Shown: piece by piece, positions 3,037 to 11,452 of the stretch
How positions within the stretch are numbered: the stretch's first letter is position 1
Layout: every line of letters begins with the position of its first letter
Source: Escherichia coli
Lineage (GTDB): Bacteria; Pseudomonadota; Gammaproteobacteria; Enterobacterales; Enterobacteriaceae
Assembly (NCBI RefSeq): GCF_003334355.1
Contig: NZ_QOWP01000012.1
Reading direction: 5' to 3' (one strand)
DNA: 64,000 nucleotides
The notes under the pieces: model-generated
What the model was told of the DNA's origin: nothing
The model's input: only the letters and a program-made list of their open reading frames with translations
Databases searched by the model: none
Position numbers and translations under genes: made by a program

Positions 3037-4005
3037 ATGACGATGCCAACGAATCAATGCCCGTGGCGGATGCAGGTTCATCACATTACGCAAGAAACGC
3101 CGGATGTGTGGACGATTTCCCTGATTTGCCACGATTACTACCCATATCGCGCCGGGCAATATGCACTGGTCAGCGTGCGAAACTCAGCGGAAACGCTGCG
3201 TGCTTACACCATTTCCTCCACGCCAGGCGTGAGTGAATATATCACCCTGACCGTGCGGCGGATTGATGACGGTGTCGGCTCCCAGTGGCTGACGCGCGAT
3301 GTAAAACGCGGTGATTATCTCTGGCTTTCGGACGCGATGGGGGAATTTACCTGCGACGATAAAGCAGAAGATAAATTCCTGTTGCTGGCGGCAGGCTGCG
3401 GCGTCACGCCGATTATGTCGATGCGTCGCTGGCTGGCGAAGAACTGTCCACAGGCCGATGTACAGGTGATCTACAACGTGCGCACGCCGCAGGATGTTAT
3501 TTTCGCCGATGAGTGGCGTAACTATCCGGTAACGCTGGTGGCGGAAAATAACGTTACCGAAGGCTTTATCGCTGGTCGTCTCACTCGCGAACTGCTGACT
3601 CGCGTTCCTGACTTAGCTTCACGTACCGTGATGACCTGCGGCCCGGCTCCGTATATGGATTGGGTAGAGCAGGAAGTGAAAGCGCTCGGCGTGACGCGTT
3701 TCTTTAAAGAGAAATTCTTCACCCCAGTAGCGGAAGCAGCGACCAGCGGTCTGAAATTCACCAAACTGCAACCGGCACGAGAATTTTACGCCCCGGTTGG
3801 CACCACGCTACTGGAGGCGCTGGAAAGCAATAACGTTCCGGTTGTCGCCGCCTGCCGTGCGGGTGTTTGCGGCTGCTGTAAGACAAAAGTGGTTTCCGGT
3901 GAATATACGGTGAGCAGCACAATGACGCTGACCGACGCCGAAATCGCTGAAGGTTACGTACTGGCCTGCTCCTGCCATCCGCAGGGGGATTTGGTTCTCG
4001 CATAA
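3037..4005 (+). CDS. hcr: NADH oxidoreductase for Hcp (FAD and 2Fe-2S ferredoxin-reductase-like)
   Basis: 322 aa from the ATG at 3037 with TAAGGAG 7 nt upstream; C-terminal CRAGVCGCC 2Fe-2S motif; starts 12 nt after the hcp stop. Confidence 0.93.
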   Translation: MTMPTNQCPWRMQVHHITQETPDVWTISLICHDYYPYRAGQYALVSVRNSAETLRAYTISSTPGVSEYITLTVRRIDDGVGSQWLTRDVKRGDYLWLSDAMGEFTCDDKAEDKFLLLAAGCGVTPIMSMRRWLAKNCPQADVQVIYNVRTPQDVIFADEWRNYPVTLVAENNVTEGFIAGRLTRELLTRVPDLASRTVMTCGPAPYMDWVEQEVKALGVTRFFKEKFFTPVAEAATSGLKFTKLQPAREFYAPVGTTLLEALESNNVPVVAACRAGVCGCCKTKVVSGEYTVSSTMTLTDAEIAEGYVLACSCHPQGDLVLA

Positions 4006-4137
4006 TCGCCTTATGCTCGATGATATTCCTTTCATCGGGCTATTTAACCGTTAGTGCCTCCTTTCTCTCCCATCCCTTCCCCCTCCGTCAGATGAACTAA
4101 ACTTGTTACCGTTATCACATTCAGGAGATGGAGAACC

Positions 4138-5856
4138 ATGAAACAAACGGTTGCAGCTTATATCGCCAAAACACTCGAATCGGCAGGGGTGAAACGCATC
4201 TGGGGAGTCACAGGCGACTCTCTGAACGGTCTTAGTGACAGTCTTAATCGCATGGGCACCATCGAGTGGATGTCCACCCGCCACGAAGAAGTGGCGGCCT
4301 TTGCCGCTGGCGCTGAAGCACAACTTAGCGGAGAACTGGCGGTCTGCGCCGGATCGTGCGGCCCCGGCAACCTGCACTTAATCAACGGCCTGTTCGATTG
4401 CCACCGCAATCACGTTCCGGTACTGGCGATTGCCGCTCATATTCCCTCCAGCGAAATTGGCAGCGGCTATTTCCAGGAAACCCACCCACAAGAGCTATTC
4501 CGCGAATGTAGTCACTATTGCGAGCTGGTTTCCAGCCCGGAGCAGATCCCACAAGTACTGGCGATTGCCATGCGCAAAGCGGTGCTTAACCGTGGCGTTT
4601 CGGTTGTCGTGTTACCAGGCGACGTGGCGTTAAAACCTGCGCCAGAAGGGGCAACCATGCACTGGTATCATGCGCCACAACCAGTCGTGACGCCGGAAGA
4701 AGAAGAGTTACGCAAACTGGCGCAACTGCTGCGTTATTCCAGCAATATCGCCCTGATGTGTGGCAGCGGCTGCGCGGGGGCGCATAAAGAGTTAGTTGAG
4801 TTTGCCGGGAAAATTAAAGCGCCTATTGTTCATGCCCTGCGCGGTAAAGAACATGTCGAATACGATAATCCGTATGATGTTGGAATGACCGGGTTAATCG
4901 GCTTCTCGTCAGGTTTCCATACCATGATGAACGCCGACACGTTAGTGCTACTCGGCACGCAATTTCCCTACCGCGCCTTCTACCCGACCGATGCCAAAAT
5001 CATTCAGATTGATATCAACCCAGCCAGCATCGGCGCTCACAGCAAGGTGGATATGGCACTGGTCGGCGATATCAAGTCGACTCTGCGTGCATTGCTTCCA
5101 TTGGTGGAAGAAAAAGCCGATCGCAAGTTTCTGGATAAAGCGCTGGAAGATTACCGCGACGCCCGCAAAGGGCTGGACGATTTAGCTAAACCGAGCGAGA
5201 AAGCCATTCACCCGCAATATCTGGCGCAGCAAATTAGTCATTTTGCCGCCGATGACGCTATTTTCACCTGTGACGTTGGTACGCCAACGGTGTGGGCGGC
5301 ACGTTATCTAAAAATGAACGGCAAGCGTCGCCTGTTAGGTTCGTTTAACCACGGTTCGATGGCTAACGCCATGCCGCAGGCGCTGGGTGCGCAGGCGACA
5401 GAGCCAGAACGTCAGGTGGTCGCCATGTGCGGCGATGGCGGTTTTAGCATGTTGATGGGCGATTTCCTCTCAGTAGTGCAGATGAAACTGCCAGTGAAAA
5501 TTGTCGTCTTTAACAACAGCGTGCTGGGCTTTGTGGCGATGGAGATGAAAGCTGGTGGCTATTTGACTGACGGCACCGAACTACACGACACAAACTTTGC
5601 CCGCATTGCCGAAGCGTGCGGCATTACGGGTATCCGTGTAGAAAAAGCGTCTGAAGTTGATGAAGCCCTGCAACGCGCCTTCTCCATCGACGGTCCGGTG
5701 CTGGTGGATGTGGTGGTCGCCAAAGAAGAGTTAGCCATTCCACCGCAGATCAAACTCGAACAGGCCAAAGGATTTAGCTTGTATATGTTGCGCGCAATCA
5801 TCAGCGGACGCGGCGATGAAGTGATCGAACTGGCGAAAACGAACTGGCTAAGGTAA
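4138..5856 (+). CDS. poxB: Pyruvate oxidase (ubiquinone-dependent, thiamine-diphosphate and FAD enzyme)
   Basis: 572 aa; N-terminus [31 protein letters not shown]; GDG thiamine-diphosphate motif ([10 protein letters not shown]). Confidence 0.95.
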
Positions 5857-5892
5857 AAAGGGTGGCATTTCCCGTCATAATAAGGACATGCC

Positions 5893-6894
5893 ATGATTGA
5901 TTTACGCAGTGATACCGTTACCCGACCGAGCCGCGCCATGCTCGAAGCAATGATGGCCGCCCCGGTTGGGGACGACGTTTACGGAGACGACCCTACCGTT
6001 AATGCTCTGCAGGACTACGCCGCAGAGCTTTCCGGTAAAGAAGCCGCCATTTTTCTGCCGACCGGCACTCAGGCCAACCTGGTCGCTCTGCTCAGTCACT
6101 GCGAACGTGGCGAAGAGTATATTGTCGGTCAGGCCGCGCATAACTATCTGTTTGAAGCCGGTGGCGCAGCGGTGCTGGGCAGTATTCAGCCGCAACCCAT
6201 CGACGCGGCTGCCGACGGCACGCTACCGCTGGATAAAGTGGCGATGAAAATCAAACCCGACGATATCCATTTCGCCCGCACCAAATTACTCAGTCTGGAA
6301 AACACCCACAACGGCAAAGTGCTGCCGCGTGAATACCTGAAAGAAGCATGGGAATTTACCCGCGAGCGCAATCTGGCGCTGCATGTTGACGGTGCGCGCA
6401 TCTTTAATGCCGTGGTGGCTTACGGCTGCGAACTGAAAGAGATCACGCAATATTGTGATTCGTTCACCATTTGCCTGTCGAAAGGTCTTGGGACGCCAGT
6501 CGGTTCATTACTCGTCGGTAATCGTGATTACATTAAACGTGCCATCCGCTGGCGGAAAATGGCCGGTGGCGGGATGCGTCAGTCCGGGATTCTGGCTGCC
6601 GCCGGGATGTATGCCCTGAAAAATAACGTCGCACGGTTGCAGGAAGATCACGACAACGCCGCCTGGATGGCGGAGCAACTGCGTGAAGCAGGCGCGGATG
6701 TGATGCGTCAGGACACTAATATGCTGTTTGTTCGCGTCGGGGAAGAAAATGCTGCCGCGTTAGGCGAATACATGAAAGCGAGAAACGTGCTGATTAACGC
6801 CTCGCCGATTGTCCGCCTGGTGACGCATCTTGACGTCTCGCGCGAACAACTGGCGGAAGTCGCCGCCCACTGGCGCGCATTCCTGGCGCGTTAA
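5893..6894 (+). CDS. ltaE: Low-specificity L-threonine aldolase (PLP-dependent)
   Basis: 333 aa; [14 protein letters not shown]-terminus typical of threonine aldolases. Confidence 0.93.
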
Positions 6895-6904
6895 GGAGAG
6901 AGAC

Positions 6905-8335
6905 GTGCCGCAACGCATTTTAGTTCTCGGTGCCAGTGGCTACATTGGTCAGCATCTGGTGCGCACACTCAGCCAGCAAGGGCATCAGATCCTGGCGGCG
7001 GCACGTCATGTCGACAGGCTTGCAAAGCTGCAACTGGCAAACGTCAGTTGCCATAAAGTCGATCTCAGCTGGCCGGATAACCTTCCGGCCCTGTTGCAGG
7101 ATATCGATACCGTCTATTTTCTGGTGCACAGCATGGGCGAAGGCGGCGATTTTATCGCTCAGGAGCGCCAGGTGGCTCTCAACGTCCGCGATGCGCTACG
7201 TGAAGTATCAGTTAAGCAATTAATCTTTCTCAGTTCGTTGCAGGCCCCGCCACATGAGCAGTCGGATCATCTGCGTGCTCGTCAGGCTACGGCGGACATT
7301 CTTCGTGAAGCGAATGTACCTGTGACCGAACTTCGGGCCGGAATTATCGTTGGCGCAGGTTCAGCGGCGTTCGAAGTCATGCGCGATATGGTCTACAACC
7401 TGCCAGTGTTAACGCCGCCACGCTGGGTACGTTCACGCACCACGCCCATCGCGCTGGAAAACTTGCTGCACTATCTGGTGGCGTTGTTAGATCATCCGGC
7501 CAGCGAACACCGCATCTTCGAAGCCGCCGGACCAGAGGTGCTCAGTTATCAGCAACAGTTTGAACATTTTATGGCGGTGAGCGGTAAGCGCCGCTGGTTG
7601 ATCCCCATCCCCCTCCCCACCCGCTGGATTTCGGTGTGGTTTCTCAATGTGATTACTTCCGTACCGCCCACCACCGCCAGGGCGTTGATTCAGGGGCTGA
7701 AACACGATCTGCTGGCGGATGATACCGCGCTACGTGCACTCATCCCACAACGGCTGATCGCTTTCGATGACGCGGTACGTAGCACGTTGAAAGAGGAGGA
7801 AAAACTGGTCAACTCCAGCGACTGGGGCTACGACGCTCAGGCCTTTGCCCGCTGGCGACCGGAGTACGGTTATTTTGCCAAACAGGCGGGGTTTACCGTT
7901 AAAACGTCCGCCAGCCTTGCTGCTTTATGGCAGGTAGTGAACCAAATCGGCGGTAAAGAGCGTTATTTCTTTGGCAATATTTTGTGGCAGACACGGGTGT
8001 TGATGGACCGCGCGATCGGTCATAAGCTGGCGAAAGGCCGCCCGGAGCGCGAATATTTACAGACTGGCGATGCGGTAGATAGCTGGAAAGTGATTGTCGT
8101 TGAACCGGAAAAACAACTTACGTTGTTATTTGGCATGAAAGCGCCGGGGCTGGGACGACTGTGTTTTAGCCTGGAAGATAAAGGCGACTATCGTACTATC
8201 GATGTCCGCGCTTTCTGGCATCCGCACGGTATGCCGGGGCTGTTTTACTGGTTATTGATGATCCCCGCGCATCTGTTTATTTTTCGCGGAATGGCAAAAC
8301 AAATCGCCAGACTGGCAGAACAAAGCACAGATTAA
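6905..8335 (+). CDS. ybjT: Uncharacterised NAD(P)-binding Rossmann protein with C-terminal domain of unknown function
   Basis: 476 aa from a GTG at 6905 with GGAGAG upstream (longest ORF begins at a TTG at 6830 inside ltaE); VLGASGYIG dinucleotide-binding motif; called by synteny. Confidence 0.85.
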
Positions 8336-8433
8336 TCGACAAAACCTGCGTTATTCTTTCATGTTTCCCATTGCATCATGGGGGAAATCACGGAAGAATG
8401 CGCACGTTATTTTCTCAACAACAGTGGATTGAT

Positions 8434-9447
8434 ATGAAGGTACTGGTTACCGGCGCCACCAGCGGCTTAGGTCGAAACGCGGTAGAGTTTTTATGCCAGA
8501 AAGGCATCAGCGTGCGAGCGACCGGTCGCAACGAGGCAATGGGCAAATTGCTGGAAAAAATGGGCGCAGAGTTTGTTCCGGCGGATCTGACCGAGCTGGT
8601 TTCATCACAAGCTAAAGTGATGCTCGCGGGCATTGATACGCTGTGGCACTGCTCCAGCTTTACCTCACCCTGGGGGACACAACAGGCTTTCGATCTGGCT
8701 AACGTTCGCGCCACTCGCCGCCTGGGTGAATGGGCTGTCGCCTGGGGTGTGCGTAACTTTATTCATATCTCTTCCCCCTCCCTGTACTTCGATTATCACC
8801 ACCATCGCGATATTAAAGAAGATTTTCGCCCTCACCGCTTCGCCAACGAGTTTGCCCGCAGCAAAGCAGCCAGCGAAGAAGTGATCAATATGCTTTCGCA
8901 GGCGAATCCACAAACGCGCTTTACTATTCTGCGCCCACAAAGTCTGTTCGGACCGCACGATAAAGTCTTTATTCCCCGTCTGGCGCATATGATGCACCAC
9001 TACGGCAGTATTCTGTTACCGCATGGCGGCAGTGCGCTGGTCGATATGACCTACTATGAAAATGCCGTGCACGCAATGTGGCTGGCAAGCCAGGAAGCCT
9101 GCGATAAGCTACCTTCCGGGCGTGTGTACAACATCACCAACGGCGAGCATCGCACACTGCGCAGCATCGTGCAGAAGCTGATCGACGAGTTGAATATTGA
9201 CTGTCGTATTCGTTCCGTCCCCTACCCGATGCTGGATATGATCGCCCGCAGCATGGAGCGTTTAGGCCGCAAGTCAGCAAAAGAGCCGCCGCTGACCCAC
9301 TACGGCGTCTCCAAGTTGAATTTTGACTTTACGCTGGATATTACGCGTGCGCAGGAAGAGTTAGGTTATCAGCCGGTCATCACCCTGGATGAAGGTATCG
9401 AGAAAACTGCCGCCTGGCTACGCGACCACGGAAAACTGCCGCGCTAA
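8434..9447 (+). CDS. ybjS: Uncharacterised NAD-dependent epimerase/dehydratase-family protein
   Basis: 337 aa from the ATG at 8434; VTGATSGLG Rossmann motif; called by synteny. Confidence 0.85.
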
Positions 9448-10274
9448 TCCTGCCCGTATTTCTCCAGCAATGCTTCGGCAATCGCCTGAGTTTCTGCATC
9501 CGCTTCGCCGTTATATAACGTCGGGCGGAAATGCATCTGGAATGCCATAATCACGCGCCGCTGCTCGCGCGGTGTCATATCAGGTTTAACGTCATAACCG
9601 TAGCGCGCCAAAAGCTCCAGCAATGACGCGGTATCTACCGGTGTGTGCGGCGCGCGCCCGGCAAGGTAAAAGTTAACCCGCTGCGCATCCGGCCAGGCAC
9701 CAATCCCCTGCTGCGCCAGTTGCTGCCAGGGAAATAATGGCCCCGGATCGTCTTTGCGCTGCGGTGCGATATCCGCATGTGCCACTACGTTTTCCGGCTT
9801 GATGTGATAACGGGCAATAATATCTTTCGCCAGTGGAATAAGCGCCTGAATCTGTGCCGGTTCAAACGGGGCAAAATATTTCACTCCGGCCGATTTTTGC
9901 CAGCCACGGTTTTCCAGCTCAATGCCAATAGAGGTGTCGTTAAGGCGCGTTGCCCCGCGCCAGGCGCTAATCCCCGCATGCCAGGCCAGTTCTTGTTCCG
10001 GCACCAGTTGCCAGATGCGCGGTTTACCGTTGTATCGCGGTGGTACCGCAGGGACCAGATAATGCGAGCTGACCTGCTTATCGGTCAGTGTCGCCAGCGA
10101 GCTATCAAAATCATCTGCGGTGTAGTGGATCACCAGCACTTTAATGCGCGGATACGCCGCCTGCGCCTGGCGTCGGGTATCAAGCTGATATCCCTCTTTC
10201 TCGACAATGCCTTTTTCGCCTGCACACCCTGCCAATAACAGAGCGGCAGCGACCAGCCAGAAGACTCTTCTCAT
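9444..10274 (-). CDS. amiD: N-acetylmuramoyl-L-alanine amidase AmiD, outer-membrane lipoprotein
   Basis: 276 aa; signal peptide with lipobox LLAGC; amidase_2 fold. Its stop overlaps the ybjS stop in the tetranucleotide CTAA. Confidence 0.9.
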
Positions 10275-10594
10275 CGACGCGTTTTCACCGCCGTACCGCT
10301 GACGCTAACCATCAGCATACTGCCGTTTTGCCCGACCGTTTCGTAGTCGATATCAATACCGACGACGGCATCGGCCCCCAGCGCCCGCGCCTGGGAGCCT
10401 AATTCCTCAAAGGCGATCTCCCGTGCTTTACGCAGTTCTTTTTCATACGCACCGGAACGTCCGCCAACGATATCGCGGATACCGGCAAAGAAATCACGGA
10501 AAATATTGGCACCTAAAATCGCTTCGCCGGTCACCACACCGCAATATTCAACGATGGTCTGGCCTTCCAGAGTTGGGGTTGTAGAAAATTGCAT
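10271..10594 (-). CDS. ybjQ: UPF0145-family small protein
   Basis: 107 aa; stop overlaps the amiD start (ATGA), suggesting translational coupling. Confidence 0.85.
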
Positions 10595-10719
10595 GATCGA
10601 TCTCCTTGTTTGCTAAGCCTTCGATCTCAAAAGCATTATCAGACTGATACGCTATTATTGAAAGGATATCATTATTATCGTAGAACGCTTTCAGAGCGAT
10701 CGCTTATAAGGAAATCATT

Positions 10720-11235
10720 ATGCGCTACAGCAAATTGACAATGCTTATCCCCTGCGCACTGCTCCTCAGTGCCTGCACCACAGTCACTCCAGCTTATAAA
10801 GATAACGGCACACGCAGTGGTCCTTGCGTTGAAGGAGGCCCGGATAACGTGGCCCAGCAATTTTATGACTACCGCATTTTGCACCGCAGCAACGACATCA
10901 CCGCCTTGCGCCCTTATCTGAGCGACAAACTGGCGACACTGCTTAGCGATGCCTCCCGGGATAATAACCATCGGGAACTACTGACCAACGATCCATTCTC
11001 CAGTCGAACCACCTTGCCAGACAGCGCCCACGTTGCCAGTGCATCGACTATCCCTAATCGTGATGCCCGTAACATTCCTTTGCGCGTGGATCTTAAACAG
11101 GGTGACCAGGGCTGGCAGGATGAAGTGTTAATGATTCAGGAAGGCCAGTGTTGGGTCATCGACGATGTGCGTTACTTAGGCGGTAGCGTTCATGCCACGG
11201 CGGGTACGCTCCGTCAGTCCATCGAGAATCGCTAA
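10720..11235 (+). CDS. ybjP: Putative lipoprotein YbjP
   Basis: 171 aa; signal peptide with lipobox LLSAC. Confidence 0.85.
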   Translation: MRYSKLTMLIPCALLLSACTTVTPAYKDNGTRSGPCVEGGPDNVAQQFYDYRILHRSNDITALRPYLSDKLATLLSDASRDNNHRELLTNDPFSSRTTLPDSAHVASASTIPNRDARNIPLRVDLKQGDQGWQDEVLMIQEGQCWVIDDVRYLGGSVHATAGTLRQSIENR

Positions 11236-11381
11236 CGCCTTGATCAACCAATAAACCCCGTAAATTGTCCGGCATTTCGTGAGGAATGCCGACATTTATG
11301 CTCGCCGACCACCGCCCCCGTTATTTTGTGCTATGTTTATTGAATAATGCGCTTTGCTTTTAACTTTTAAAGCAGAAATAT

Positions 11382-11395
11382 TGCATAATTATTCT
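11382..11395 (+). promoter_or_regulatory. ARG-box-like sequence TGCATAATTATTCT in the artP promoter region
   Basis: Resembles the TGAAT-N4-ATTCA core of ArgR boxes (8 of 10). artPIQM is known to be arginine-repressed. A second weaker TGAATAATGC lies at 11341-11350. Confidence 0.35.
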
Positions 11396-11452
11396 GTCAA
11401 AGGTACTATCTTCGACCTCAATAGCTATCAGACTGCCAGTATACGAGTGTCA

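Follow-up and report, generated by a model that had tools for sequence, protein, structure and literature searches.

We analyzed a 64,000-nucleotide stretch of E. coli DNA (the window), which is 100% identical to E. coli chromosomes, and focused on two neighboring genes, ybjT and ybjS. The ybjT-ybjS region was found in 5425 of 5426 complete genomes. RefSeq gene coordinates were placed on the window by adding 2499 to the locus coordinate (Table 1). The two genes lie on the same strand, downstream of poxB and ltaE, and ybjS converges on amiD. We treat amiD and ybjQ, which make up the convergent neighboring operon, as context: no functional link to ybjS is in evidence.

Table 1. Genes and sequence features at the ybjT-ybjS locus, in window coordinates.
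Feature	Position	Strand	Basis and remarks
poxB	4138-5856	+	RefSeq annotation
ltaE	5893-6894	+	RefSeq annotation; 5' neighbor of ybjT in the operon that ends with ybjT
Shine-Dalgarno sequence AAGGAG of ybjT	6893-6898	+	Read from sequence; 6 nt before the GTG start
ybjT coding sequence	6905-8335	+	476 aa, GTG start; RefSeq annotation, ORF listing, translation
YbjT GxxGxxG dinucleotide-binding motif, G9-G15	6929-6949	+	Translation, homolog alignment
YbjT S120-x-H122-LRA-R126, at the position of the SDR catalytic Ser...YxxxK	7262-7282	+	PDB alignment, 107 homologs
YbjT interdomain linker, residues 305-323, low confidence	7817-7873	+	pLDDT <50, AlphaFold2
YbjT C-terminal DUF2867 domain, residues 326-475	7880-8329	+	Predicted SRPBCC/START/Bet v 1 helix-grip fold; hydrophobic final helix 442-475
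ybjT-ybjS intergenic region	8336-8433	+	Conserved block: TTGCAT 8371-8376, 17-nt spacer, AAGAAT 8394-8399
ybjS coding sequence	8434-9447	+	337 aa, ATG start; RefSeq annotation, Pfam
YbjS TGATSGLG (TGxxGxxG) NAD(P)-binding motif	8449-8472	+	Translation, ortholog alignment
YbjS F140-ARS-K144, Phe at the catalytic Tyr of YxxxK	8851-8865	+	Alignments with solved SDRs and with orthologs
ybjS/amiD convergent overlap of coding sequences, 4 nt	9444-9447	both	Read from sequence
amiD	9444-10274	-	RefSeq annotation; converges on ybjS
ybjQ	10271-10594	-	RefSeq annotation; forms the convergent neighboring operon with amiD

Both ybjT and ybjS are real genes and not chance open reading frames, as judged by synteny and dN/dS: synteny of the orthologs, with ybjT and ybjS adjacent, is kept at 78 of the 80 Enterobacteriaceae species loci and adjacency holds in Yersinia as well, and dN/dS for the pair is 0.02–0.10 (these values are rough because dS is saturated, at above 1). 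An initial annotation, made from the sequence alone, had described them as tandem Rossmann-fold proteins with glycine-rich N-terminal motifs (VLGASGYIG and VTGATSGLG) and no assigned substrate, and had suggested a domain search. Both motifs occur in the translations, and Pfam places both proteins in the SDR superfamily, with SDR-type matches in each and a DUF2867 match in YbjT. None of the NCBIfam models reaches its curated cut-off with YbjT or YbjS, and the structural neighbors in AFDB50 are all unnamed DUF2867/SDR proteins. Literature searches for ybjT, ybjS, and DUF2867 found no functional study, substrate, or activity, and no experimentally supported function for either protein. Both genes are already catalogued as core E. 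coli y-genes, so the observation is real but not new.

The N-terminal part of YbjT has the Rossmann fold and the GxxGxxG motif of SDRs (G9 and G12 are invariant across homologs), and the AlphaFold2 model of the protein has a pLDDT of 91 and a pTM of 0.89. The family has 813 representatives at E < 1e-30, and conservation was measured in 107 diverse homologs (28–58% identity to YbjT). R34, at the end of beta-2, is kept in 102 of these 107. Cofactor preference in SDRs follows a known residue rule, by which R34 suggests that YbjT would bind NADP(H). YbjT does not have the Ser...YxxxK signature of SDRs: Ser120 is kept, and H122-LRA-R126 occupies the YxxxK position, so that the S120/H122/R126 segment lies opposite SRYAASK of 9g83_P in the PDB alignment. 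The replacements are conserved themselves (S120 and H122 in 99 of 107 homologs each, with Tyr instead of His in only 4, and R126 in 106 of 107). That a Ser-His-Arg set is conserved where SDRs have their catalytic residues speaks for a site that has been maintained. NCBI CDD probably places YbjT in a subgroup of its own (cd05245, SDR_a2, "HXXXR").

The nearest relatives of YbjT in both fold and sequence are NDUFA9-type (39-kDa) subunits of complex I (9g83_P, 6zk9_d, and 6gcs_E), which are also the top structural neighbors of its Rossmann domain. NDUFA9 has an extended-SDR fold, binds NADPH, and sits at the membrane/quinone interface. These proteins retain YxxxK (SRYAASK) where YbjT has HLRAR, so YbjT is not simply an NDUFA9-like protein; they also consist of a single SDR domain, whereas YbjT has a further stretch of about 150 amino acids that makes up an SRPBCC domain. 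The atypical SDRs NmrA, HSCARG, and QOR2 (YtfG) resemble YbjT in combining a Rossmann fold and GxxGxxG with the loss of the catalytic Tyr, but they are single-domain proteins of about 290 amino acids that have neither the conserved Ser-His-Arg set nor the SRPBCC domain. The Pfam NmrA family matches YbjT at E = 2.9e-11, and there is a weak NCBIfam match to the thylakoid membrane protein ThyD. YbjT has been reported to be tethered to the inner membrane (PMC2672614). We rejected YbjT as an integral-membrane protein: its hydropathy peaks reach only 1.3–1.5 and fall in helices that are modeled inside globular domains, and we therefore treat the label "inner-membrane protein" as unproven. According to a Dub-seq preprint, overexpression of YbjT is generally toxic. 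In Salmonella, a mouse screen found a ybjT mutant to be attenuated, and the reported phenotypes of these genes also include rhizosphere colonization.

The initial annotation considered the long C-terminal part of YbjT to be atypical of epimerases, and it is: about 175 residues follow the SDR domain, and they match DUF2867 (PF11066; E = 1.8e-14 over residues 332–463), as do all 14 fusion homologs. In the predicted structure, this part is a helix-grip domain of the SRPBCC/START/Bet v 1 type, with the topology (beta, two helices, antiparallel sheet, long C-terminal helix) of polyketide aromatase/cyclases, PYR/PYL receptors, and the Coq10-like CC1736. Its likeness to these families is undetectable in sequence profiles, and in YbjT this domain comes after an SDR domain in the same chain. 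When we aligned DUF2867 to the fused Polyketide_cyc-type domains with hhalign, the probability was 0.4 and E was 0.13 (the latter profile was built from just 6 sequences), so the SRPBCC assignment rests on the predicted structure. The SRPBCC/START helix-grip fold binds hydrophobic ligands, and the YbjT domain would have a pocket for one. Eight residues of the domain are family-specific invariants (W361, R364, D368, D392, W394, Y448, W449, and H456).

Members of the YbjT family are fused to TspO_MBR (8.9e-48), Lipocalin_2 (2.3e-47), and SOUL (6.9e-37) domains, and also to Polyketide_cyc, to a YfcH-like Epimerase plus DUF1731, and to PNPOx. The fusions that involve TspO, SOUL, lipocalin, or SRPBCC domains occur in distant members of the family. 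YfcH-like genes are either fused to YbjT homologs or adjoin them. One solved structure, 3oh8 (a "SulA family epimerase" from Corynebacterium), contains both an SRPBCC and an extended-SDR domain, as YbjT does, but in the opposite order and with an SDR of another subfamily (TIGR01777/DUF1731, the YfcH type); its function is likewise uncharacterized.

In E. coli, ybjT belongs to a described poxB-ltaE-ybjT operon, and an effect of rpoS on poxB expression has been reported (PMC2759082, PMC6469107). The order poxB-ltaE-ybjT-ybjS holds in most of the 80 Enterobacteriaceae loci and also in Yersinia. The Shine-Dalgarno sequence of ybjT overlaps the stop codon of ltaE (TAA, 6892–6894), and in Yersinia the two genes overlap by 4 nt, which implies that ltaE and ybjT are co-transcribed and translationally coupled. 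The linkage to poxB is limited to Enterobacteriaceae and Yersiniaceae, and the closer gammaproteobacterial homologs of YbjT (Photobacterium, Alginatibacterium, and Dickeya) stand alone. Elsewhere, YbjT homologs have as neighbors a CarH-like regulator (MerR plus B12), fasciclin, lipocalin or TspO, and SOUL; a peroxiredoxin gene is also found directly upstream. We also scanned metagenomes with a query alignment of 8 sequences. Among 74 YbjT-family loci, we found photolyase at 9 (on the same strand in all of them) and MerR-B12, CrtI, and Staygreen at 5 each, and 8 of the 23 loci with at least 10 kb of flanking sequence had a light-type marker gene. This link to light concerns distant homologs (about 30–35% identical to E. 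coli YbjT) and only about 20–35% of loci, with no correction for phylogeny. A search for YbjS-like genes in these environmental clusters found none.

YbjS is an extended SDR by its TGxxGxxG motif (T6, G7, A8, G11, and G13 are invariant in orthologs) and its full-length family match; its Pfam matches are Epimerase (PF01370; 2.4e-29 over residues 3–234) and 3Beta_HSD (PF01073; 6.4e-17). Of the Ser/Thr-Tyr-Lys triad, S113/S114 and K144 are present and Tyr is replaced by F140, which lies opposite the catalytic Tyr of four solved SDRs (NSDHL, 9g83_P, MoeE5, and Gox2253). Phe is found at this position in 107 of 112 orthologs. YbjS is specific to Enterobacterales. The genome collection has 233 species-level relatives, and the best 80 are all from Enterobacteriaceae. 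Two simple accounts of the gene were ruled out. A dN/dS of 0.02–0.05 (rough, given the saturated dS) indicates strong purifying selection and not a decaying pseudogene, and GC and GC3 match those of the neighboring genes, as would not be expected after recent horizontal transfer.

For YbjS, the nearest families (OleD, HpnA, SdmB, and NSDHL) are ones that act on lipids or on sterols. Its best PDB match is NSDHL (E = 5e-14). Its best NCBIfam match is OleD (NF042422; 137 bits over the full length, far below the curated cut-off of 580), and it matches the hopanoid-associated epimerase HpnA (TIGR03466) at 89.1 bits (cut-off 367.65). Unlike OleD (a 2-alkyl-3-oxoalkanoate reductase) and the extended SDRs of the 3-beta-HSD/NSDHL branch, YbjS has Phe at the position of the catalytic Tyr. 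Using tblastn against plasmids, we found six distant homologs of YbjS, and all six are in a cassette that encodes a KAS III, an SDR, an MBL-fold hydrolase, and an F390-synthetase-like enzyme. The cassette SDRs are the closest homologs of YbjS outside its ortholog group (33–49% identity over at least 96% of YbjS), and the nearest of them share with YbjS a TGATxGLGRN N terminus and a YFD(Y/F)xHH segment. All six have Y-A-x-[ST]-K where YbjS has F-A-R-S-K.

The best NCBIfam match of the cassette SDR is also OleD, and the adenylate-forming gene of the cassette matches TIGR02304 at 498 bits. The parts of the cassette appear to parallel OleA, OleD, and OleC (a thiolase-like condensing enzyme, an SDR, and an adenylate-forming enzyme). 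The gene contexts differ: the cassette SDR lies between the KAS III and MBL-fold hydrolase genes, followed by the TIGR02304 enzyme, whereas ybjS adjoins ybjT and amiD. Considering only the genes of the window, nothing other than ybjT and amiD adjoins ybjS in the 80 Enterobacteriaceae loci, and within the window we found no OleA-, OleB-, or OleC-like gene next to ybjS. Among E. coli genomes, 12% have the cassette as an accessory island, and the narI-purU island of E. coli encodes a Tyr-type paralog of YbjS. Our literature search found no description of its product.

In an alignment of the ybjT-ybjS gap from eight genera, including Yersinia, ATTGCA and ACG.AA.AATG are invariant. The hexamers TTGCAT and AAGAAT fit the sigma-70 consensus at only 7 of 12 positions. 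Our promoter and terminator scan of positions 3800–11400 gave counts that were not above those in shuffled sequence; it made no call in the gap and found no terminator-like site after ybjT. Although ybjS was 2.3-fold induced in a CpxR regulon table, a search of 8336–8433 for the CpxR box (GTAAA-N5-GTAAA, up to 2 mismatches) found no match, so the reported induction has no obvious site there. A search of Rfam at a permissive E-value gave just two sub-threshold chance matches and no RNA element. We also rejected the in-frame ATG at 8398–8400 as the start of ybjS or of a leader peptide: the nucleotides are conserved, but the frame and the stop vary by genus.

The 4-nt overlap between ybjS and amiD that was pointed out in the initial annotation is exact: the coding sequences have 4 nt in common, and 2 nt belong to both stop codons (TAA of ybjS at 9445–9447; TAG of amiD as the reverse complement of 9444–9446). 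The main feature of the locus might be regulatory—an "excludon," with either gene repressed when the other is transcribed. We found no convincing terminator between the two genes, and amiD-ybjS is listed among 165 convergent excludons that were detected from RNA-seq coverage (PMC12288877), but such a listing does not by itself demonstrate mutual repression. Furthermore, terminator-like sites are no more common across 3800–11400 than in shuffled sequence (11 found versus 9.2 expected), and the arrangement is not conserved. Within Enterobacteriaceae, the tail-to-tail spacing ranges from the 4-nt overlap to gaps of over 100 nt; Yersinia has ybjS without an adjacent amiD; and in Dickeya, amiD-ybjQ adjoins ybjT and ybjS is absent. 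Since it is not conserved, the overlap is probably incidental, and we consider it improbable that an excludon is the main feature of the locus.

Even less credible to us is the reading that the database names would imply ("NAD-dependent epimerase/dehydratase" or "nucleoside-diphosphate-sugar epimerase"), in which YbjT and YbjS are ordinary nucleotide-sugar epimerases or dehydratases that help to make an envelope polysaccharide (LPS, ECA, or O-antigen). Both proteins do have Pfam Epimerase matches, an interaction-network prediction put YbjT in an envelope-biogenesis neighborhood (Hu et al. 2009), and the CpxR induction of ybjS and the attenuation of the Salmonella mutant would fit. However, both proteins lack the Tyr that all characterized epimerases and dehydratases of this fold use, they score far below the curated cut-offs of the GalE, RmlB, and RmlD models, none of roughly 170 loci that we inspected has an adjacent gene for sugar-nucleotide or polysaccharide synthesis, and the lipid- and sterol-acting families are closest to YbjS. 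Given active sites of HxxxR (YbjT) and FxxxK (YbjS) instead of YxxxK, the label "epimerase/dehydratase" is probably misleading for both. Another reading, which we find doubtful but take seriously, is a non-enzymatic role for YbjT and perhaps for YbjS: like NmrA/HSCARG or NDUFA9, such a protein would sense nucleotides or act as a scaffold, binding NADP(H) and a lipid and regulating or stabilizing a membrane-associated partner. YbjT has lost both the catalytic Tyr and Lys and YbjS has lost the Tyr; the top structural neighbors of YbjT are non-catalytic; and the NmrA and ThyD matches, the reported membrane tethering, and the toxicity on overexpression point the same way. On the other hand, His and Arg lie exactly at the catalytic positions and are kept in 93–99% of homologs, which suggests that chemistry or substrate binding is retained, and NDUFA9-like proteins differ from YbjT in keeping YxxxK. 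Also, E. coli NDH-1 (complex I) has 13 Nuo subunits, none of which is known to be of the NDUFA9 type.

The reading that we tentatively favor, while recognizing that it may well be wrong, is that YbjT and YbjS are two conserved cytoplasmic NAD(P)(H)-binding proteins with an SDR fold and without the Ser-Tyr-Lys triad, each with a role as follows. The genes themselves, their domain architecture, folds, motif changes and conservation, synteny, fusions, and neighborhoods are observed; from these we infer a cofactor preference, a ligand class, a type of catalysis, and a partnership. YbjT, as the last gene of a stationary-phase poxB-ltaE-ybjT operon, would be an NDUFA9-like atypical SDR with a C-terminal SRPBCC domain. 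This domain would capture a hydrophobic membrane molecule that is redox-active or prone to damage (perhaps a quinone, a tetrapyrrole, or a lipid) and hand it to the NADP(H) site, where the Ser-His-Arg site would reduce it. Such a reduction could protect the cell under stress: in stationary phase in enterics, and under light or photo-oxidative stress in environmental relatives. The loss of Tyr and Lys and the resemblance of YbjT to NDUFA9 and NmrA would fit a non-catalytic role equally well.

As for ybjS, the conserved region upstream of it may drive at least part of its transcription. YbjS would be the orphaned descendant of an OleD-like ketoreductase from a lipid-type cassette (KAS III, SDR, MBL hydrolase, and adenylate-forming enzyme). 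In the Enterobacterales lineage, the cassette partners would have disappeared and Phe would have replaced the catalytic Tyr, while strong constraint and the place beside ybjT were kept. YbjS may still bind NADP(H) together with a ligand of an acyl or lipid-like kind, with altered or absent redox chemistry. YbjS may also work together with YbjT. Because ybjS is absent from Dickeya and the environmental YbjT clusters have no YbjS-like gene, it is only the adjacency of the two genes that suggests a partnership. A more specific version of this proposal strikes us as unlikely. In it, the pair would jointly bind NADP(H) along with a redox-active, hydrophobic compound of the membrane (for example, a quinone, porphyrin, or oxidized lipid); YbjT would represent a widespread "SDR-START" family of stress-protection proteins with a Ser-His-Arg site, which belongs to CarH/LitR light regulons in environmental bacteria and was rewired to RpoS via the poxB operon in enterics; and YbjS would be a pseudo-enzyme or a neo-functionalized ketoreductase that was recruited as its partner from a lipid-biosynthetic cassette.

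The genes themselves are not new, but ybjT and ybjS belong to the uncharacterized "y-ome" of the best-studied bacterium, and the vague label of "epimerase/dehydratase family" can be replaced by specific statements: active sites without Tyr, a START-like DUF2867 as predicted, linked partners, and a putative origin of YbjS in a cassette. Within the YbjT family, fusion or linkage to proteins that bind tetrapyrroles or lipids recurs, as does linkage to genes of the light response. If our proposal is true, it would give a role to DUF2867, a domain that is widespread but has had no assigned function, it would provide an example of an enzyme that has lost its catalytic base and is yet under strong selection, and it would offer a guide to the phenotypes that have been reported, namely attenuation in Salmonella, toxicity on overexpression, and colonization of the rhizosphere.

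The stretch carrying ybjT and ybjS is E. coli chromosome: the 4 kb around the two genes is 100% identical to several genomes and was found in 5425 of 5426 complete E. coli genomes. As annotated in an identical genome in RefSeq, hcp, hcr, poxB, ltaE, ybjT, and ybjS are co-directional, amiD and ybjQ are convergent to them, and ybjP and artPIQM lie beyond. The initial annotation described tandem Rossmann-fold genes with glycine-rich N termini and a 4-nt overlap of the ybjS and amiD coding sequences. Translation reveals both motifs (11 residues in YbjT and 10 in YbjS), and the overlap is exact (the ybjS stop codon TAA is at 9445-9447, and the amiD stop codon TAG is the complement of 9444-9446), so this observation is confirmed in all of its details.

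Genes under study and the convergent neighbor (RefSeq annotation of an identical genome)
Gene	Position	Strand	Start codon	Protein length (aa)
ybjT	6905-8335	+	GTG	476
ybjS	8434-9447	+	ATG	337
amiD	9444-10274	-		

Among loci with both genes, the tails of ybjS and amiD overlap by 4 nt in nine cases and by 1 nt in 12; in the others the genes are apart, by up to more than 100 nt. The pairing is missing in Yersinia and Dickeya. We consider the overlap to be real and variable, and we found no evidence that it reflects anything beyond tight packing. The amiD-ybjS pair has been listed as a convergent “excludon” with overlapping transcription (PMC12288877).

The order poxB-ltaE-ybjT-ybjS is kept in Enterobacteriaceae and Yersinia, and the ribosome-binding site of ybjT overlaps the stop codon of ltaE. 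Dickeya lacks poxB, ltaE, and ybjS at this site, and its ybjT is flanked by hcr and amiD. A poxB-ltaE-ybjT operon has been described (PMC2759082, PMC6469107), together with an effect of rpoS on poxB expression, and a regulon table gives Cra, MarA, and SoxS as regulators of poxB units. Corresponding to the ltaE/ybjT junction (6880-6907), databases contain about 15 fused LtaE-YbjT proteins (720-814 aa); in these, the frame shifts close to the 3' end of ltaE, and translation continues in the ORF that begins at 6830 in the ybjT frame (the junction peptide has 21 residues). Since nearly all of the fusions are singletons, their probable cause is sequencing error or sporadic mutation. Farther along, between ybjP and artP (11265-11301, minus strand), there is a sub-threshold match to an Rfam CRISPR direct-repeat model (25.9 bits versus a gathering score of 45, E = 0.16), which is probably due to chance or to a REP-like palindrome.

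The N terminus of YbjT is an NAD(P)-binding short-chain dehydrogenase/reductase (SDR) domain (NAD_binding_10, Epimerase, and NmrA in Pfam), and the long C-terminal part that was noted at the outset contains Pfam's DUF2867 (residues 332-463). An exhaustive profile search (E < 1e-30) identified 813 cluster representatives, and most of these are about 480 aa, 28-58% identical, and have the same two-domain architecture. An alignment of 107 sequences shows hardly any variation in the glycine motif or at R34. At the position of the catalytic YxxxK of SDRs, YbjT has H122-x-x-x-R126 with S120 before it, and these residues are conserved as well (H in 99, R in 106, and S in 99 of the 107 sequences). In the AlphaFold2 model built from this alignment, which is confident (pLDDT 91, pTM 0.89), a disordered linker (305-323) joins the SDR domain to a C-terminal domain of beta-alpha-alpha-beta4-long-helix topology, which we assign to the START-like SRPBCC fold; sequence profiles did not detect a relationship between DUF2867 and SRPBCC. 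Foldseek searches of AFDB50 returned only unnamed bacterial DUF2867/SDR proteins. YbjT does not qualify as NDUFA9 or as a classical SDR enzyme, and its closest likeness is to an atypical SDR (of the NDUFA9, NmrA, or QOR2 type) with a START-like domain attached. Because the model places its two segments of moderate hydrophobicity (near residues 241 and 451) in helices within globular domains, integral insertion into the membrane appears doubtful; peripheral association is possible. YbjT has been described as “inner-membrane-tethered” and assigned to an envelope-biogenesis network (PMC2672614).

Fourteen longer homologs of YbjT have extra C-terminal parts: TspO/MBR, bacterial lipocalin, SOUL haem-binding, or SRPBCC (Polyketide_cyc) domains, SRPBCC plus a YfcH-like SDR with DUF1731, PNPOx, DUF4174, or membrane segments. 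A peroxiredoxin gene overlaps the start of a YbjT-SRPBCC-YfcH fusion, and in Halomonas, a YfcH-like gene and a free-standing DUF2867 gene are near the YbjT homolog. Elsewhere, a divergent CarH-like regulator (MerR plus B12-binding) precedes fasciclin, then lipocalin or a YbjT-TspO fusion, and then SOUL; yet another neighborhood includes Fur and a B12-binding protein.

Scanning metagenomes with a central YbjT clade as the seed gave 80 loci, and we counted neighbors by ORF clustering and seed searches for 74 of them (about 524 kb of flanking sequence). Photolyase/cryptochrome genes are present at nine loci (417 bits), always on the YbjT strand. CarH-like MerR-B12 regulators, CrtI-family desaturases (472 bits), and Staygreen (Pfam, 2.5e-48) occur at five loci each, fasciclin and SRPBCC at three each, SOUL at two, and TspO at one. 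Overall, 15 of the 74 loci have a light-type marker; when only the 23 loci with 10 kb or more of flank are considered, 8 have one. The YbjT homologs of the photolyase loci are diverse (46-96% identity, median 59%). The closer gammaproteobacterial homologs stand alone.

Plant Staygreen is a Mg-dechelatase. Its bacterial homologs (PF12638) directly adjoin YbjT-family genes in five of the metagenome loci (L106:7470-7964, L102, L119, L096, and L115), often with photolyase, CrtI, or CarH-like regulator genes nearby. Also, at 9 of the 74 loci (such as L140:2561-3952), a second, divergent YbjT-like gene comes immediately downstream of the first; it encodes an SDR domain with HxxxR, and DUF2867 is detectable in some copies. 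This tandem arrangement suggests that YbjT-type proteins may act in pairs.

YbjS is an extended SDR (Epimerase, 2.4e-29; 3Beta_HSD, 6.4e-17 in Pfam) whose best curated families in NCBIfam are OleD (137 bits; cut-off 580), HpnA, and SdmB, and whose best solved relative is human NSDHL. It has the NADP(H) features TGxxGxxG and Arg32 after beta-2. In four independent alignments to solved SDRs, F140 aligns with the catalytic tyrosine (the motif is F-A-R-S-K), while Ser113/114 and Lys144 are kept. Phenylalanine is found at this position in 107 of 112 orthologs, down to 70% identity. YbjS is predicted to be unable to use the canonical proton relay. YbjS falls below the OleD cut-off, does not have the full catalytic triad, and is outside the gene cassette of its distant homologs (described below); its closest likeness is to a reductase of the OleD/3-beta-HSD branch.

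A species-level genome scan found YbjS-specific peptides in 233 relatives, and the best 80 of the 233 are all from Enterobacteriaceae. In 78 of 80 loci, ybjS is about 100 nt 3' of ybjT, and it follows ybjT in Yersinia as well, where amiD is absent. Its GC content is that of its neighbors, and its dN/dS of 0.02-0.05 versus four genera (with dS saturated) is below those of ybjT, ltaE, and amiD. A 302-aa form that starts at Met36 (8434-8541 region) and lacks the glycine-rich motif has 360 member sequences named Shigella sonnei, and E. coli also has frameshifted forms of 267 and 309 aa, so ybjS may be inactivated in some lineages.

From E. coli to Yersinia, the gap between ybjT and ybjS retains a conserved block (ATTGCAT, 17 nt, AAGAAT-G); with 7 of 12 promoter consensus positions, it looks promoter-like at best. 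More broadly, nucleotides at 8350-8400 are kept from E. coli to Yersinia, the frame of an embedded ATG (8398) is not, and this region is probably a promoter or operator of ybjS. A CpxR regulon table reports 2.3-fold induction of ybjS; we found no CpxR consensus in the 8350-8400 block. GTAAA-N5-GTAAA with up to two mismatches occurs 75 times in the whole window (versus 49 +/- 7 in shuffled sequence) and never upstream of ybjS; the excess may be compositional.

Using tblastn, we found YbjS homologs (33-49% identity) in plasmid and megaplasmid records. In all six cases that we inspected (from Ralstonia, an E. coli replicon, Ketogulonicigenium, Pontibacillus, Paraburkholderia, and Shinella), the distant homolog, an SDR, comes second in a cassette whose genes overlap. 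The other genes of the cassette encode a KAS III (FabH-like), an MBL-fold lactonase-like hydrolase, and an adenylate-forming enzyme related to F390 synthetase (TIGR02304, 498 bits), and genes for ATP-grasp, GNAT, PAP2, or desaturase proteins frequently join them. All six SDRs retain Y-A-x-[ST]-K. Of 5426 complete E. coli genomes, 674 have the cassette, with PAP2 and two desaturase genes, as an accessory island flanked by narI and tRNA-Tyr/purU. On the chromosome of E. coli strain 4/4 (L180:6999-13880, outside the window), the seven genes encode KAS III, the SDR (a Tyr-type paralog, 45% identical to YbjS), the MBL-fold hydrolase, the F390-synthetase-related enzyme, a PAP2 phosphatase, a sterol-desaturase-family protein, and a fatty-acid desaturase; a Ralstonia megaplasmid has the identical order. 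We found no described product of this island in the literature.

The genes and their families are already catalogued, under gene names, DUF2867, and COG-style names. The claim that neither protein has an assigned substrate holds: full-text literature searches found no experimental function for ybjT, ybjS, or DUF2867, and no NCBIfam model matches either protein at its cut-off. YbjT is in a set of 24 genes that are harmful in at least 10 conditions when overexpressed (Dub-seq preprint), a ybjT mutant of Salmonella showed attenuation when screened in mice, rhizosphere colonization by Paraburkholderia required a “YbjT (DUF2867)” gene, and ybjS is among the GroE-related entries in a shotgun-proteomics table on obligate GroE substrates.

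We view the following as leads, not proofs: the Ser-His-Arg site of YbjT, the SRPBCC fold of its C-terminal domain, the association of its family with light clusters and fusion partners, and the origin of YbjS as an orphan with Phe in place of Tyr. YbjT would bind NADP(H) and handle a hydrophobic ligand, which its START-like domain would hold. Because Ser-His-Arg is strictly conserved at the catalytic positions, we slightly favor a variant active site over a purely structural or sensing role. Given the fusion partners and neighbors, the ligand of YbjT might be a tetrapyrrole, a quinone, or an oxidized lipid, in the context of (photo-)oxidative stress. PoxB is a peripheral membrane enzyme that reduces ubiquinone, and in enterics, ybjT would have become attached to the stationary-phase operon that poxB heads. 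YbjS, in turn, may descend from the OleD-like ketoreductase of this lipid-type cassette. Both its cassette partners and its catalytic base would have been lost, and it would have been kept beside ybjT under strong constraint; it probably continues to bind NADP(H) and an acyl-like ligand.
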